Part shown: positions 6,573 through 58,471 of the stretch, piece after piece
How positions within the stretch are numbered: the stretch's first letter is position 1
Layout: the number at the start of each line of letters is the position of its first letter
Assembly: GCA_035508495.1 (NCBI GenBank)
Contig: DATJMX010000030.1
Location: 33,894-97,893 of the forward strand
Length of the DNA: 64,000 nucleotides
Origin: Candidatus Binataceae bacterium
Lineage (GTDB): Bacteria > Desulfobacterota > Binatia > Binatales > Binataceae
Direction of reading: 5' to 3'
Program-made: the position numbers and the translations under genes
Notes under the pieces: generated by a model
What the model was told of the DNA's origin: nothing
Databases searched by the model: none
The model's input: only the letters and a program-made list of their open reading frames with translations

Positions 6573-7007
6573 TTAGTTTGCGCGCGCGGCGCGCTTCGCT
6601 TCGCGATGCGCCGGGGCGCTGATACGCCCACTGCGGACCACCGGTGAACGGCGCGCGAGACGGCGCGTCGACACGCCGGCCAGCTGCTGGCTGCGCCATT
6701 CGCGCAGACCCTTGCGCAGGAACCCAGGCTCGATGCCGAGCGTTTCGCAAACCACCTCGAACGAGAACGGGCCTTCGCCGCCCTCGCCGCACAGCCACTG
6801 CTCGGCCTCATTGAACAGGCGCTTGCGGGCGCCAGTCTTCGCGTCGGCGTTATTCTGGAAGCATCGCAGCGCGTCCTCGAGAATCGCCATCATCAGCTTT
6901 TTGACGGGGCGGATCGAGCTATCGTCGCGCCGGCTGTCATAGAACTGCTCGGGCGTCAGAACGTCCGGAACAAAGAGATTCCCCAATGCGCTGTTTTCCC
7001 ATTCCAT
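6573..7007 (-). CDS. hypothetical protein with basic C-terminal tail
   Basis: Start placed at MEWENSALGNL (ATG complement 7005-7007, GGAAGG RBS). No recognisable domain. Its upstream region 7008-7377 is AT-richer and carries palindromes. Confidence 0.4.
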   Translation of the reverse strand: MEWENSALGNLFVPDVLTPEQFYDSRRDDSSIRPVKKLMMAILEDALRCFQNNADAKTGARKRLFNEAEQWLCGEGGEGPFSFEVVCETLGIEPGFLRKGLREWRSQQLAGVSTRRLARRSPVVRSGRISAPAHREAKRAARAN

Positions 7008-13534: not shown

Positions 13535-14980
13535 ATGGGCGCGCGCTCGGGCAACAACTACCTGTCATCGATAAAGAAGCTGGGCGGCGAGATCTGGCTC
13601 GGCGGCGAGCGCGTCAAAGATCCGACTACGCATCCGGGCCTCATGCACGCGGCCCGCTCGCTCGCCTCGCTCTACGACATGCAGGCCGAGCGGCCCGAGG
13701 CGATGACGTTCCGCACCGAAGACGGCGGCCGCGCCGGAATCTCGTTCATGATTCCGAAGAGCGTCGACGACGTGCGCAAGCGCTCGCGGATGATGAAGGC
13801 GTGGGCCGATTACAGCGGCGGCATGATGGGCCGCACCCCCGACTATCTCAACGCGAGTATCGCGGCGATGGCGGCCGCGCGCGAGTTCTTCGCCGAGAGC
13901 GATCCACGCTTCGGCGACAATATCTGGAACTACTATTTGAGCGCGCGCGAGCATGACTGGTGCGCGACGCATACTCTCGTCAATCCGCGCGCGAGCCGTG
14001 CGCAGGGATGGGCGGGGCATACCGACGCCGACCTCGCACTCAAGCTCGTCGACAAGACGAACGAGGGAATCATCGTCAACGGAGCGCGGATGCTCGCGAC
14101 GCTCGCGCCGCTCTCGGAAGAACTGCTCGTGTTTCCATCGACGGTGCTTAGGGCGGAGTCTGCTGCGGAGCCGTTCGCGCTCTCGTTTGCGATCAACTGC
14201 AACGCCAAGGGCCTCAAGTTCCTGTGCCGCGAGACGTTTGACCTCGGACGCTCGCATTTCGATCATCCGCTCGCCTCGCGCTTCGAGGAGATGGACGCCG
14301 TTGTCATCTTCGAAAATGTGACGGTGCCTTGGGAGCGCGTATTCCTGTGCGGCGATGTCGCGCGATGCAACGCGCTCTACGGCGCGACCAATGCTGTCGT
14401 CCACATGATGCACCAGGTCGCGGTAAAGAACGTCGCCAAGAGCGAGTTTCTGCTCGGTCTCGCAACGCGAATCGCCGAGGTCGCCGATGCGATGCCACTG
14501 CAGCATGTGCGCGAGCGCCTGGCGGAGATGATCACGACGACCGAGACGATGCGCGCGTGCCTGCGCGCGTCGGAAGCCGATGCGTCCGTCGATAAATGGG
14601 GCGTATGCGTGCCGGCGCGGCCGCCGCTCGACACGGCGCGCAACCTGTTCCCGAAGCTCTATCCGCGGATGGTCGAGATCATCCAGCTCAACAGCTCGAG
14701 CTCGCTGATGGCGACGCCTGCGGCGAGCGATTTCGCTAATCCTGCCGAGTTGCCCGATATCGAGAAATACTTTGCATCTGTAGATGCGGCCGCGCGCGAG
14801 CGCGTCGCGCTCTATCGCCTCGCCTGGGACGTCGCATGCAGCGCATTCGCGGGCAGGCAGGTGTTATACGAGCGCTTCTTCTTCGGCGATCCGGTCAGGA
14901 TGGCTTCGGCGCTGGTCGATAATACCGACCTGAAGCCCTTGGTAGAGCGGGTAAAGCAATTCCTGAATCGTCCCACATGA
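13535..14980 (+). CDS. HpaB-family two-component flavin-dependent monooxygenase, oxygenase component (4-hydroxyphenylacetate 3-hydroxylase family)
   Basis: YLSSIKKLGGEIWLGGERVKDPTTHPGLMHAARSLASLYD aligns with the E. coli HpaB N-terminus YLKSLQDGREIYIYGERVKDVTTHP; RTPDYLNA and a C-terminal helical domain. 481 aa. Confidence 0.8.
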   Translation: MGARSGNNYLSSIKKLGGEIWLGGERVKDPTTHPGLMHAARSLASLYDMQAERPEAMTFRTEDGGRAGISFMIPKSVDDVRKRSRMMKAWADYSGGMMGRTPDYLNASIAAMAAAREFFAESDPRFGDNIWNYYLSAREHDWCATHTLVNPRASRAQGWAGHTDADLALKLVDKTNEGIIVNGARMLATLAPLSEELLVFPSTVLRAESAAEPFALSFAINCNAKGLKFLCRETFDLGRSHFDHPLASRFEEMDAVVIFENVTVPWERVFLCGDVARCNALYGATNAVVHMMHQVAVKNVAKSEFLLGLATRIAEVADAMPLQHVRERLAEMITTTETMRACLRASEADASVDKWGVCVPARPPLDTARNLFPKLYPRMVEIIQLNSSSSLMATPAASDFANPAELPDIEKYFASVDAAARERVALYRLAWDVACSAFAGRQVLYERFFFGDPVRMASALVDNTDLKPLVERVKQFLNRPT

Positions 14981-14996
14981 TGATTGCCGATCTCTT

Positions 14997-15048
14997 TGAA
15001 TAACCTCGCCTTGAATAACCTCTCCCGTTTTGCGGGCGAAATTATTCA
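14997..15048. repeat. collapsed remnant or solo inverted-repeat of MITE family A (TGAATAACCTCGCC + TTGAATAACCTCTCCCGTTTTGCGGGCGAAATTATTCAA)
   Basis: Matches the terminal inverted repeats of the 238-bp element at 44113-44350. Confidence 0.55.
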
Positions 15049-15198
15049 AACCAGGCAGAGCGAATGCATCGAGCGTTGTGCGGCTTGACTGTTGGAGGGC
15101 GCGACGATACTTTCGGCGCGTCACGTTTCGCGTGCTCCTATGAAGGCAACCTTCGCAGATATCCAAATCGTTTAGGGAAAATTCGAAACCTGACTTGT

Positions 15199-15240
15199 AA
15201 AAAGCCCCGGGCTTCGATGCCCGGGGCTTTTTCTTTTTCT
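15199..15240 (+). terminator. rho-independent terminator after the hpaB-family gene
   Basis: AAAAAGCCCCGGGCTTCGATGCCCGGGGCTTTTTCTTTTTCT: 9-bp GC stem, 6-nt loop, T-run. Confidence 0.6.
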
Positions 15241-31087: not shown

Positions 31088-31200
31088 AAATTCCCGTGCG
31101 GGAAGGGAAAGAGAGTTAGTTTTTTTCTGGATTCGGCTTGAGTAAAAAATCCAGAAACGACCTAAACCCCTAGCCCCTTCCGGCACGGGAAGGGGAACCG
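31088..31200. repeat. MITE-like palindromic element, repeat family B (TTCCCGTGCGGGAAGGGAAAGAGAGTTAG ... spacer hairpin ... ACGACCTAAACCCCTAGCCCCTTCCGGCACGGGAAGGGGA)
   Basis: Inverted arms with an internal TCTGGATT/AATCCAGA hairpin. Related copies at 58364-58471 (full) and 41921-41962 (single arm). Confidence 0.65.
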
Positions 31201-32020: not shown

Positions 32021-32180
32021 GCCCCTCTCTCTGAGCAGGGAGAGGGCAAGGGTGAGGGTATTCTGGGTTTTGATCTCGCGGGGATCAGCGCAGAGTCAGG
32101 CGACCCTCACCCGGCGCCGGGGTGCGGCGCCGATCTCTCCCTGGTCAGGGACAGGGATTTTGAGCGAGAGGCGGTCGCGA
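32021..32180. repeat. composite palindromic repeat, family E (CCCCTCTC(T/C)CTG(A/G)(G/T)CAGGGAG...GGGATTTT), with internal GGGTGAGGG/CCCTCACCC inverted repeat
   Basis: CTCTCCCTGGTCAGGGACAGGGATTTTGAG at about 32144 matches CCTCTCCCTGGTCAGGGAGCGGGATTTTCGG at 48957-48988; a related half-copy sits at 32021-32078. Confidence 0.55.
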
Positions 32181-41920: not shown

Positions 41921-41962
41921 TTCCCTTCCCGGTGCGGGAAGGGGACAGGGGTTAGGTCGTCT
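41921..41962. repeat. single-arm copy of repeat family B (TTCCCTTCCCGGTGCGGGAAGGGGACAGGGGTTAGGTCGTCT)
   Basis: Matches the arms of the elements at 31088-31200 and 58364-58471. Confidence 0.55.
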
Positions 41963-42975: not shown

Positions 42976-43008
42976 CGCTTAAGCCGCATCGTAATTTCGA
43001 TCGTCATA

Positions 43009-43040
43009 AGCCCCGCGCACTCCGCGGGGCTTTTCATTTT
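43009..43040 (+). terminator. rho-independent terminator after rpmA
   Basis: AAGCCCCGCGCACTCCGCGGGGCTTTTCATTTT. Confidence 0.55.
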
Positions 43041-43061: not shown

Positions 43062-44087
43062 ATGCGACTCGGTCTCGTTACCGGATATTCAGGTGCCCAG
43101 ATGGGCATGCCGATGGACGTCATTCTCGAGGCGGAAAAATGCGGCTTCGATTCGGTGTGGACCGCGGAGGCCTACGGCTCCGACGCGATCGTGCCGCTCT
43201 CGTGGATCGCCGCGCTCACCAAGAAGATCAAGCTCGGCACCGCGATCATGCAGATGCCGGCGCGCACGCCCGCAATGACAGCCATGACCGCGATGACCCT
43301 CGACGCGCTCTCGGGCGGCCGCTTTATCCTCGGTATCGGCCCATCGGGACCGCAGGTGGTCGAAGGATGGCACGGCGTGCCCTACGGCAAGCCGCTCCAG
43401 CGCACCCGCGAATACATCGATATCGTGCGTATGGTGCTGGCGCGTCAAGTGCCCGTCGAGCATCACGGCAGCGAGTTCCGCATCCCCTATGACGGCCCCG
43501 GCGCGAGCGGCCTCGGCAAGCCGCTCAAAAGCATCCTGCACGGCCGCAAGGACATGCCGATCTACACCGCATCGATCAGCCCCAAGGGAATCGCGCTGGC
43601 GGCTGAGATCGCCGACGGTGTGATCCCGGTCTGGATGAATCCCGAGCGCTTCGATCTTTACGACGGGCCGCTCAAGGAAGGCTTCGCGAAGTCGGGCGGT
43701 AAGAAGTCGATGGCCAACTTCGAGGTCGCGCCGTTCGTGACCTGCGTGATGGGCAACGACGTCGAGAAATGCCGGATGCCGGTGAAGTCGATGCTCGCGC
43801 TGTACATCGGCGGGATGGGCGCGCGCAAAAAGAATTTCTACAACGACTACGCCAAGCGCCTCAACTACGAAGGCGAGGCAGTGGAGATCCAGGACCTGTA
43901 CCTGACCGGCAAAAGAAACGAAGCAATCGCGCTAGTGCCGGACAAGCTTGTCGACGAAGTCGCCTTGGTCGGTCCCAAAGAAAGAATCAAAGAGCGCCTC
44001 GCCGCGTGGAAAGCCTCCCCAGTAAAAAGCATCCTGATCGGGAGCGGCTCGATCGACACGGTGCGAGCGCTCGCGGAGATGGTATAG
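43062..44087 (+). CDS. LLM-class (luciferase-like) F420-dependent oxidoreductase
   Basis: TIM-barrel luciferase-like family with VWTAEAYGSDAIVPLSWIAALTKKIKLGTAIMQMP and RFILGIGPSG; GGAGGA RBS. Confidence 0.7.
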   Translation: MRLGLVTGYSGAQMGMPMDVILEAEKCGFDSVWTAEAYGSDAIVPLSWIAALTKKIKLGTAIMQMPARTPAMTAMTAMTLDALSGGRFILGIGPSGPQVVEGWHGVPYGKPLQRTREYIDIVRMVLARQVPVEHHGSEFRIPYDGPGASGLGKPLKSILHGRKDMPIYTASISPKGIALAAEIADGVIPVWMNPERFDLYDGPLKEGFAKSGGKKSMANFEVAPFVTCVMGNDVEKCRMPVKSMLALYIGGMGARKKNFYNDYAKRLNYEGEAVEIQDLYLTGKRNEAIALVPDKLVDEVALVGPKERIKERLAAWKASPVKSILIGSGSIDTVRALAEMV

Positions 44088-44112: not shown

Positions 44113-44350
44113 TGAATAACCTCGCCCGCAAAGCGGGAGAGGTCGGATGGCGAGGAGCTTGAGATGTCTGAGTTCAAGCTGCTTGCCATCCGGGCGAGGG
44201 TGCAGCGGCGGGAGCGTGCAGGAACTTCTCGCTGCTAACATTCTGCCAGCTTCGAACGCCGCACCCTCACCCGCACGTCACGGCGCATGCGAAAAAAACG
44301 CAACCGCTGCGCCGCGCGACCTCTCCCGCGATGCGGGCGAGGTTATTTGG
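44113..44350. mobile_element. 238-bp MITE-like element (family A) with about 33-bp terminal inverted repeats, inserted between the LLM oxidoreductase and obg
   Basis: Left end TGAATAACCTCGCCCGCAAAGCGGGAGAGGTCG; right end CGACCTCTCCCGCGATGCGGGCGAGGTTATTTGG, whose reverse complement is CCAAATAACCTCGCCCGCATCGCGGGAGAGGTCG. A collapsed copy sits at 14997-15048. Confidence 0.65.
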
Positions 44351-44401
44351 GAAATCGGAGAGGCCCCATACACTCGCAGCAACTATATTGTTCGAACCGC
44401 C

Positions 44402-45415
44402 ATGCGATTTATTGATGAAACTCGGGTTTTTGTTAAGGCCGGCAACGGTGGCAATGGGGCGATTGCGTTCCTGCGCGAGAAATATCGCCCCTTCGGCGGG
44501 CCCTCGGGCGGCGATGGCGGCAATGGCGGCAGCGTCATTATCGAAGTCGATGAGGGCCTCTCGACGCTGCTCGATTTCAAGTACCAGCCGCGCCTTATCG
44601 CGCGCGACGGCGAGTCCGGCCGCGGCAAGCAGCAATACGGCCACTCCGCCGACGATCTCGTCGTGCGCGTGCCGCCTGGCACGATCGCCTTCGACGATGA
44701 AACCGGCGAAGTGCTCGCCGATGTTGTGATGCCCGGCTCGCGCGCCGTGATCGCCGAGGGCGGCAAAGGCGGCGCTGGCAATATGCATTTCGCGACCTCC
44801 ACTCGCCGCGCGCCGCGTATCGCGACTCCCGGCACGGCGGGTGTCCAGCGATGGGTGCGGCTCGAGCTGCGCCTGGTCGCGGAAGTCGGCCTCGTCGGCC
44901 TGCCCAACGCTGGCAAATCGACTCTGCTGCGCGCGCTCACCGCCGCGCGGCCCAAGGTCGCGTCGTATCCGTTCACGACGCTGACGCCGAATCTCGGCCG
45001 CGTGCATATCACTGATGAGGAGAGCTTCTCGATCGCCGATATCCCGGGACTTATCGAAGGTGCGCATCTCGGGCACGGCCTCGGAATCCGATTCCTGAAG
45101 CATCTGTCGCGTACCCGCGTCCTGCTTTACGTTCTCGATATTGCAGACAAGCCTGACGAGGCGTTCAAGACCGTGCGCGGCGAGCTCGAAGCCTTCGACG
45201 CGTCCCTGCTCGGGCGTCCCGCGCTCGTCGCACTCAACAAGATCGATCTCCTGGGCGAAGAAGACATTGCGCGTGCGACGCGCGAGGTTGTATCCGCAAC
45301 GAAACTCGAAGTGGTGACGATCTCCGCCGACAAAAAACTGGGACTCGAACCGCTCGTTGCGCGGCTCGCCACGATGCTGCATGAGTTCGATCAGCCCGCC
45401 ACATGTCCCACCTGA
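44402..45415 (+). CDS. obg: GTPase Obg/CgtA
   Basis: MRFIDETRVFVKAGNGGNGAIAFLREKYRPFGGPSGGDGGNGGSV Obg fold; G-domain GLVGLPNAGKST and DIPGLIEGA. Confidence 0.9.
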   Translation: MRFIDETRVFVKAGNGGNGAIAFLREKYRPFGGPSGGDGGNGGSVIIEVDEGLSTLLDFKYQPRLIARDGESGRGKQQYGHSADDLVVRVPPGTIAFDDETGEVLADVVMPGSRAVIAEGGKGGAGNMHFATSTRRAPRIATPGTAGVQRWVRLELRLVAEVGLVGLPNAGKSTLLRALTAARPKVASYPFTTLTPNLGRVHITDEESFSIADIPGLIEGAHLGHGLGIRFLKHLSRTRVLLYVLDIADKPDEAFKTVRGELEAFDASLLGRPALVALNKIDLLGEEDIARATREVVSATKLEVVTISADKKLGLEPLVARLATMLHEFDQPATCPT

Positions 45416-48956: not shown

Positions 48957-48988
48957 CCCTCTCCCTGGTCAGGGAGCGGGATTTTCGG
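48957..48988. repeat. repeat family E copy (CCCCTCTCCCTGGTCAGGGAGCGGGATTTTCGG)
   Basis: Matches 32137-32175. Confidence 0.5.
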
Positions 48989-58363: not shown

Positions 58364-58471
58364 CTTCCCTTCCAGTGCAGGAAGGGAAAGAGGGTTAGGT
58401 CGTCTCTTTTTCTGAAAAGATCTCAGACAAACGACCTAACCCCCAGCCCCTTCCCGCATCAGGACGGGGGG
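58364..58471. repeat. MITE-like palindromic element, repeat family B, full copy
   Basis: CTTCCCTTCCAGTGCAGGAAGGGAAAGAGGGTTAGGTCGTCT, a spacer, then ACGACCTAACCCCCAGCCCCTTCCCGCATCAGGACGGGGGGG. Confidence 0.65.

Follow-up and report, generated by a model that had tools for sequence, protein, structure and literature searches.

A nested-palindrome repeat inserted upstream of obg in Candidatus Binataceae, probably a member of a dispersed BoxC-type family

What is the long palindrome that separates a luciferase-like oxidoreductase gene from obg in a Candidatus Binataceae bacterium: a transposable element, a structured RNA of its locus, or a repeat of some other kind? We analysed a 64,000-nucleotide stretch (hereafter, the window) of contig DATJMX010000030.1 (assembly GCA_035508495.1, positions 33,894 to 97,893), in which this noncoding 238-bp segment occupies positions 44113–44350. 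It starts 3' of the stop codon of the oxidoreductase gene (43062–44087; Pfam Bac_luciferase) and lies upstream of the true start of obg, ATG 44402 (MRFIDE...), the gene order being rplU–rpmA–oxidoreductase–element–obg–proB–proA–nadD–rsfS. A first-pass annotation made from the sequence alone had called it a complete MITE (miniature inverted-repeat transposable element) that is, or was, mobilised in this genome. The explanation that we favour, and in which we have good confidence as a whole, is that the segment is one copy of a dispersed, noncoding, nested-palindrome and selfish repeat family of Candidatus Binataceae that is recognised through its structure and joins two unlike arms, each a unit of the BoxC / TM_ECO type, as an inverted dimer; a classical MITE and a REPIN-like doublet are its main rivals.

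The left end (44113–44145; TGAATAACCTCGCCCGCAAAGCGGGAGAGGTCG) and the right end (44317–44350) are reverse-complementary at 29 of 31 positions, the differing positions being those of a hairpin loop, and in a repeat search the inverted arms reached 47 nt at 81% complementarity. The segment is thus bounded by inverted ends of ~31 nt, as the first-pass annotation had described. As DNA, each end folds into a hairpin by itself (−11 and −10 kcal/mol; z −4.6 and −4.0), and the window has three occurrences of the core hairpin motif where 0.07 would be expected. The whole 238 nt fold far better than shuffled sequence both as RNA (−152.6 kcal/mol, z −11.8) and as DNA (−86.2 kcal/mol, z −9.6), with tools that model Watson–Crick and G–U pairs only. 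The predicted shape is a four-way junction in which the internal inverted repeat GAGGGTGCAGCGGCG / CGCCGCACCCTC makes up the central stem, with a 3-nt bulge; the internal repeats and the hairpin nature of each terminal repeat, both pointed out previously, were therefore confirmed. One G·A mismatch is fixed in the terminal hairpin and mirrored in the opposite arm; the repeated unit is thus asymmetric, and its two terminal copies are genuinely inverted. The only internal open reading frame (ORF) ends after 24 codons in the window and continues in a homologous copy (L043, see below), and hence is not conserved. The element sequence is identical in two independent assemblies (ENA, Logan); the Logan contig begins 4 nt inside the left end, and independent assemblies break within repeats of this kind.

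Read from the outside in, an arm of this family begins with (T/C)GAA(A)TAA, continues with a hairpin CCTCGCCC-GC-loop-GC-GGGAGAGG that holds the fixed G·A mismatch, and then has a TCG junction, an arm-specific long hairpin and a GGGYGAGGG segment, the family end sequence being GAAATAACCTCGCCCGC. In the window copy, which we assign to 'subfamily 1' of the Binataceae family from its sequence, its folds and eight full-length homologues, the left terminal inverted repeat (44113–44145) was delimited by repeat search, motif count and folding, and comprises the outer end TGAATAA, hairpin H1 (44120–44142; CCTCGCCCGC-AAA-GCGGGAGAGG, with one G·A mismatch) and the TCG junction. The long hairpin H2 of the L arm follows (44144–44192; DNA fold −18.5 kcal/mol, z −7.5), with an 18-bp stem, six of whose pairs change on both sides among eight copies, and a conserved loop GAGATGTCTGAGT. 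The G-rich segment GGGCGAGGG (44192–44200, plus strand), in place of which other copies have GGGTGAGGG, takes the position of the 'third strand' of BoxC/TM repeats and also provides the 5' half of the central stem. The central stem-loop (GAGGGTGCAGCGGCG ... CGCCGCACCCTC; 44196–44269), defined by folds and by copy alignment, encloses a variable centre. On the right, CCCTCACCC (44264–44272), which is GGGTGAGGG on the minus strand, forms the third-strand segment of the R arm; it is followed by the R-arm hairpin GCGGCGCATGCG-AAAAAAA-CGCAACCGCTGCGCCGC (44273–44319), conserved in sequence among copies, unlike the L-arm hairpin and folding weakly by itself (z −1.0), and then by the right terminal inverted repeat (44317–44350) with the CGA junction, H1' at 44320–44342 and the outer end TTATTTGG. 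Because the GGGYGAGGG and CCCTCRCCC segments also pair with each other as the central stem, a single strand folds into the four-way junction.

Is this unit unique to the locus? Loci fetched from metagenomes and genomes, ~130 in all, are given L-numbers here. A metagenome scan with a 19-base hairpin pattern gave 105 loci, and BLAST of the whole element against these identified eight full-length homologues with 77–85% identity over positions 1–238 (L043, L054, L084, L057, L126, L083, L097 and L038) as well as a further eight copies cut by contig ends. The full and partial copies lie on soil-metagenome contigs at unrelated intergenic sites, all with different flanks. In an all-against-all comparison, host sequence was common to one pair only, L043 and L104, where the copies are placed differently and the L arm of L104 matches that of L043 at 53/53 positions, the shared IDH gene being just 87% identical. 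L043 is also the one contig with a copy that could be assigned to Candidatus Binataceae, since the product of a neighbouring gene has a 100% identical counterpart in a Candidatus Binataceae metagenome-assembled genome (MAG) at NCBI. All nine full-length copies, that of the window included, are intergenic, often 20–60 nt past stop codons, and are oriented 4 versus 5 relative to flanking genes. Both arms are conserved and yet unlike each other, the L arm with its 18-bp hairpin and loop GAGATGTCTGAGT and the R arm with ...TTGCGATTCTTTTTCGCAA.... RNAalifold on the eight copies returned the four-way junction with 87 pairs, 13 of them with compensatory changes that fall mostly in the L-arm hairpin; the arm hairpins are under structural constraint.

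Since the long arm-specific interiors make every copy recognisable as a copy of one whole 238-bp unit, these sequences show that the unit has been copied whole to many unrelated intergenic sites. Such whole-unit copies are direct evidence for the spread of a BoxC-type dimer in one piece, and they make the family a trackable model for asking what mobilises elements of this type, besides being repeats that break metagenome assemblies. Mobilisation in this genome, as first proposed, was not borne out, since ~81 kb of this contig hold a single full copy and one solo derivative of the 238-bp family.

The same spacer in relatives speaks to how the element came to lie beside obg. The window matches the 118-kb ENA metagenome contig k141_1080140, and every named protein among the best 120 homologues listed for its Obg is from Candidatus Binataceae, with 71–76% identity. 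These homologues rule out an alphaproteobacterial host, which gene order and the matches of a genome scan had suggested. Among relatives with the orthologous spacer, it is empty in L019 (26 bp; Obg 82% identical) and L021 (25 bp; Obg 80%), occupied by a different but related element in L016 and L020 (Obg 89% and 92%) and by a decayed copy of the latter in L017 (Obg 83%), and filled with an unrelated GTCATCCTGAGCG-type repeat in L022 and L023 (Obg 80% in both). The L016 and L020 spacers also seem to hold a decayed remnant of the window-type right hairpin. With the spacer empty in two relatives and taken up by other repeats in others, the segment is an insertion and not a conserved leader RNA; by this comparison the element entered the oxidoreductase–obg spacer by insertion, and different repeats have colonised the spacer repeatedly in different lineages.

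Several side observations concern this region. A repeat GTCATCCTGAGCGCAGCGAG...GAAGGATC and its inverse, which are widespread, fill the spacer in another Binataceae lineage (L022, 4711–5000; L023). An ORF at 44147–45415 is in frame with obg and has its ATG within the element, giving 422 aa as compared with 337 aa from 44402, and the repeat could thus lead gene callers to extend obg wrongly upstream into it. Around obg the window is identical to k141_1080140, and from ~54659 to the window end there are single-nucleotide differences and a net 20-nt indel offset, so that the window is a near-identical sequence, from a strain variant or another assembly.

To which known repeats is this family related? 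The first-pass assignment recognised the MITE-like form and missed the closest relative, BoxC / TM_ECO / PIT. Earlier literature on BoxC/PIT includes Bachellier et al. in the 1990s and Hoyne and Maher in 2000 and 2002; these repeats are not known to have a function, and to our knowledge their origin and spread have stayed unexplained since the 1990s. The link was traced with the hairpin sequence in literature full text, which led to Holder et al. (2015; PMC4666352), where BoxC, the PIT (potential intrastrand triplex) element and TM_ECO are the same. The TM_ECO pattern is CCCTCNCCC-N3-6-GGGNGAGGG-N3-GGGNGAGGG, and there are 3610 copies in 262 proteobacterial genomes (PMC4666352). According to the same study, the motif is always intergenic, without strand bias and not seen in association with transposases; in vitro it adopts a stable intrastrand triplex of the purine motif, undetected in vivo; it has neither promoter nor terminator activity in E. 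coli; its loci are hypervariable, palindromic pairs tending to lose parts with hairpin formation retained; such pairs always combine one unit of type A and one of type B; and a G·A mismatch like that of the window hairpin is present in 'A mm' (CCCTCGCCCC...GGGGAGAGGG), the type most common in E. coli.

The window element agrees with BoxC in module order, a C-rich stem CC(C)TCNCCC, a loop, GGGNGAGG(G), a second loop and GGGNGAGGG, the core of its unit being a CCTCKCCC...GGGMGAGG hairpin plus the GGGYGAGGG segment, and the order pyrimidine stem, purine stem, G-rich third stem is present in both arms. The G·A mismatch of its hairpin is identical to that of type 'A mm'. As in BoxC pairs, two unlike unit types are inverted around a short centre, the L and R hairpins being separately conserved. 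Moreover, the family is likewise intergenic, without strand bias (4 versus 5 in nine copies), without any transposase or flanking mobility gene found in the fetched loci, and prone to local instability in which a hairpin survives partial loss. In E. coli K-12, the hrpB–mrcB spacer, H1-CCG-GGGTGAGGG-16 nt-CCCTCACCC-TAA-H1', has the layout of the window elements. Scored by sequence, positions compatible with full triplets (G·G:C, T·A:T, A·A:T) number 6/8 in the L arm and 7/8 in the R arm, for comparison with 8/8 in the consensus of an alphaproteobacterial sister family (see below) and 9/10 in E. coli type 'A mm'.

There are also differences from BoxC. The stems of the window element are 8 nt plus a 2-bp GC clamp instead of 9 nt, TCG and a 46-nt arm-specific hairpin stand in place of the 3-nt second loop, the outer ends are AT-rich and conserved (GAAATAA), and the unit is 238 bp long against ~85 bp for the E. 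coli pair. The host here is Binataceae, TM_ECO having been reported from 262 proteobacterial genomes; and conservation of the whole unit at many loci argues for copy-and-paste spread, a mode not known for BoxC. The strict published TM pattern has zero matches in the window. With up to one mismatch per stem it matches 32023–32058, one arm of a 'subfamily 2' element in which an arm with a 3-nt loop is paired with one whose loop holds a hairpin; for the 238-bp element, the arms match a relaxed pattern only. Taken together, these comparisons suggest that the element is a doubled and enlarged form of the BoxC / triplex motif of E. coli and fairly ordinary selfish intergenic DNA, and that what is new here would be a BoxC/TM-type variant in Binataceae, enlarged by a GC clamp and an extra second-loop hairpin.

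A sister family is found in Alphaproteobacteria. When genomes were scanned with the terminal 26-mer pattern, 14 matches came from 13 loci, all in alphaproteobacterial MAGs (Acetobacteraceae, Rhizomicrobium and others; L003–L015), and these loci hold more copies, up to three elements per 8 kb. Apart from the loop, their terminal module AATAACCTC(T/G)CCCGC-nnn-GCGGGAGAGGTCG is identical to that of the window element, and so is the layout H1-TCG-H2-GGGTGAGGG ... CCCTCACCC-H2'-CGA-H1', with unlike H2 in the two arms; in full, alphaproteobacterial elements read AATAA-H1-TCG-H2-GGGTGAGGGTGATCGGG...-centre-...CCCGATCACCCTCACCC-H2'-CGA-H1'-TTA. Unlike in the window element, H2 is short (4–5 bp, with a GNA loop), H1 is a perfect palindrome and the elements are 130–190 bp long. 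In 28 alphaproteobacterial arms H1 is invariant and without covariation, and of the five H2 pairs three vary at both partners, the observed covariation score being reached by 0/500 shuffles; each complete element has two arms with different H2 sequences. The H2 loops are GNA triloops in GCGNAGC, a context in which they form very stable DNA mini-hairpins. We found no published name for this family in the literature. Some 33 more metagenome matches belong to other subfamilies that share the H1-TCG-...-GGGWGAGGG module. That Binataceae and Alphaproteobacteria have a near-identical terminal module points to one recognition target common to both.

Two arrangements in the wider group deserve separate mention. 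L074 (2198–2400) contains three head-to-tail copies, with a period of ~86 bp, of H1-TCG-GCGCCGCAGGCGCC-GGGTGAGGG, and by its sequence would be a tandem, not inverted, arrangement of the H1-TCG module. In L007 (2280–3080), the centre of an alphaproteobacterial copy consists of ~800 bp of other nested small repeats with no gene, among them an inverted pair around CGAATCACGGAAGACTCGGAATTCG and a GTCATGGCCGGGCTTGACCCGGCCATCCATG-type palindrome.

How might such an element spread? The favoured explanation would have a non-autonomous selfish repeat, MITE-like in form, spread in trans by an enzyme for which the invariant module of terminal hairpin plus TCG is the recognition target, probably with the single-stranded DNA folded; structural instability, as at E. 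coli BoxC/TM loci, would then collapse elements to single-hairpin solos. A bolder version, which we regard as rather doubtful, is that BoxC/TM repeats at large are truly mobile units, whole dimers of which are copied without target-site duplication by a structure-specific enzyme that is shared or exchanged between phyla (Binataceae, Alphaproteobacteria and enterobacteria). If true, that enzyme would recognise the hairpin–TCG terminal module on folded single-stranded DNA, and solos with both outer ends would be footprints of excision or collapse.

A number of observations weigh against the favoured explanation. No target-site duplication of at least 3 bp was found at any consistent offset, with at most two of nine aligned copies agreeing, and the mobilising enzyme was not identified: the ~130 fetched loci, the intervals between distant inverted ends and 72,556 plasmids yielded no transposase or insertion sequence (IS) with matching ends. 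Several copies per genome are deduced from metagenomes, and ~81 kb of this contig has one full copy. Copies differ by 15–23%, and the family may thus be old and now immobile. Compensatory changes in palindromes could also arise by gene conversion within the element and not by selection. A clean filled/empty pair was not found, since in L019 and L021 the spacer differences exceed the element, and L129 gives an untidy picture when set beside L043 or L104, divergence extending past the junctions. The arms of the 238-bp element fail the strict TM pattern, their stems being 8 nt long with a GC clamp added and their second loop, which contains a hairpin, measuring 49–51 nt, and the L arm of the window has C at a triplet position where other copies have T. 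Finally, even for E. coli TM the stable triplex went undetected in vivo (PMC4666352).

The rival that fares best, although we hold it to be unlikely, is a classical MITE, that is, a deletion derivative of an IS with a DDE transposase (for example of the IS630/Tc1 type, which duplicates TA), mobilised in trans via its terminal repeats. Its small size (238 bp, within the 50–800 bp of MITEs), noncoding content, terminal inverted repeats of ~31 nt (at least 10–15 bp being usual for MITEs) and many dispersed copies at distinct metagenome loci fit the structural definition of a prokaryotic MITE (PMC11602168). In form it also resembles Correia/NEMIS of Neisseria, ERIC/IRU of enterobacteria, RUP and RPE, which are long noncoding palindromes of 100–250 bp with terminal inverted repeats, intergenic, present in many copies and, as RNA, folding into a long hairpin. 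For Correia and RUP there is a duplicated TA as well as a transposase that is a plausible partner; the window element differs from both in having no demonstrable duplication and no partner enzyme that we could find. TA does flank ACCTC...GAGGT on both sides in 5/9 copies, which would suit such a transposase, but TA is self-complementary and the conservation runs on beyond it (GAAA-TA / TA-TTTC), and it therefore reads as part of the inverted repeat, from which it is inseparable. Against a MITE, too, count the lack of any direct repeat of 3 bp or more and the failure of the fetched loci, of the intervals between distant inverted ends and of the plasmids to yield an IS or transposase whose ends match, and no transposase is reported for the related BoxC/TM class (PMC4666352). 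Thus, of the initial MITE call, the small noncoding repeat with terminal inverted repeats, its dispersal as whole copies and its insertion here stand; a target-site duplication, which in MITEs measures 2–10 bp, could not be told from the inverted repeat in the nine copies, and a matching transposase was not found in the loci and plasmids searched.

The searches behind these negatives took in BLAST of both the window element and an alphaproteobacterial copy against the 72,556 plasmids, without any match. Inverted ends 1.3–3.9 kb apart, considered as an IS, turned out either to belong to separate elements lying side by side or to have ordinary genes between them (a VIT/ferritin-like protein, a MoxR ATPase), and a 930-bp stretch in L007, considered as a transposase carrier, holds other nested repeats without a transposase. 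A scan of viral contigs gave one match, which belongs to another subfamily and hence is no evidence for a phage vector. In literature full text, GGGTGAGGGTGA and similar strings retrieved telomere primers only, and literature on MITEs in Alphaproteobacteria, RIME and Binatia yielded no description of this family.

Could the two terminal hairpins instead be a REPIN-like doublet, with repetitive extragenic palindromic (REP) hairpins moved as folded single-stranded DNA by a RAYT, a transposase of the IS200/IS605-type Y1/HUH class, and solos as immobile REP singlets? We consider this improbable. An inverted pair of ~23-nt hairpins that also occur singly, the lack of target-site duplication, compensatory changes that preserve hairpins, and the GNA triloops of alphaproteobacterial H2 would all suit it, and GTAG and CGTC REP/REPIN repeats are similarly short GC-rich hairpins, single or in inverted doublets, without target-site duplication; CGTC repeats moreover have no dedicated transposase and are mostly head-to-head dimers (PMC3733652). 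The defining tags GTAG and CGTC are both absent, however, which excludes these two superfamilies, the inner junction being CGAC (GGTCG on the other strand) and the outer end TAA. In addition, 238 bp far exceeds the size of a REPIN, the unlike arms with long specific internal hairpins and a G-rich third segment have no counterpart in REP/REPIN, and no RAYT gene was seen in the fetched loci (metagenome contigs and MAG loci).

Whatever its means of spread, the repeat might have been taken over for host function here, as an mRNA-stabilising or processing hairpin, as an attenuator between the ribosomal-protein/oxidoreductase genes and obg, or as a terminator, to which we give a rather slim chance. 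If the oxidoreductase gene and obg are co-transcribed, the element would put a very stable structure in the transcript, and its place within a co-directional gene row, the frequent location of copies 20–60 nt after stop codons and the T-rich tails (TTATTT) contributed by the outer ends are in line with such a function. Yet two relatives with the same gene order do without it, it occurs in both orientations, a terminator scan does not call it and there is no promoter-like site facing obg, and PIT/BoxC showed no promoter or terminator activity in E. coli (PMC4666352). The element at this site is most likely a passenger. A locus-specific structured RNA of obg (leader, riboswitch or small RNA), suggested by the strong predicted structure immediately 5' of the gene, is effectively refuted by its absence from L019 and L021, where the spacer is 25–26 bp and empty, by other repeats in its place in L016, L017 and L022, by homologous copies adjoining unrelated genes and by the absence of any Rfam match in the window at the gathering threshold, a relaxed E-value giving just weak matches to generic long hairpins (microRNA precursors).

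Returning to the favoured BoxC-type repeat, what becomes of its copies can be seen at a second site in the window, after hpaB (13535–14980), where a solo derivative (14996–15049) begins 15 nt past the stop codon. The first-pass annotation had reported a collapsed copy here. The site is real, 15018–15048 being identical to the terminal repeat at 28/31 positions and 14997–15010 an exact match to its first 14 nt, but from its sequence it reads as a complete single-hairpin unit, TTGAATAA-hairpin-TTATTCAA (15011–15049), with both outer ends, preceded by a 15-bp tandem duplicate of its own left edge (14996–15010; 14/15 identical). Single-hairpin solos with both outer ends also occur in L039, L090, L099 and L104, and solo derivatives thus appear to be recurrent in the family. 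Simple recombination between the terminal hairpins is a possible though not favoured origin for them: most crossovers would give a perfectly paired hairpin, yet all solos observed keep the mismatch, a count in which 3/4 solos had been picked with a pattern demanding the mismatch. In L129 (3962–4536), a ParE/RelB toxin–antitoxin pair follows the IDH gene, in a position where the related L104 (1040–1144) has a solo repeat hairpin only. Strong hairpins resembling intrinsic terminators, with T tails, were noted at 43008–43032 (after rpmA) and at 15199–15232; the latter lies ~150 nt downstream of the hpaB solo, which is therefore not the hpaB terminator.

The window also contains members of subfamily 2. 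The two-armed element at 32023–32156 lies between divergent genes (DNA-alkylation-repair; exonuclease/GIY-YIG), and its arm at 32023–32058, which fits the published TM_ECO/BoxC pattern at up to one mismatch per stem, is paired with an arm that has a hairpin inside the second loop. A solo hairpin of this subfamily, CCCTCTCCCTG-GT-CAGGGAGCGGG, follows rsfS (48957–48980), and at the orthologous site of L016 (Obg 89% identical), with the same flanks on both sides, there is a full two-armed element (6877–7004), which would make this a full-versus-solo difference at a single locus. Three further hairpins, (T)TCCCTTCC-loop-GGAAGGG(AA), at 31174–31195, 41921–41945 and 58365–58388, resemble the repeat hairpins with another stem and may be another small repeat family or terminators.

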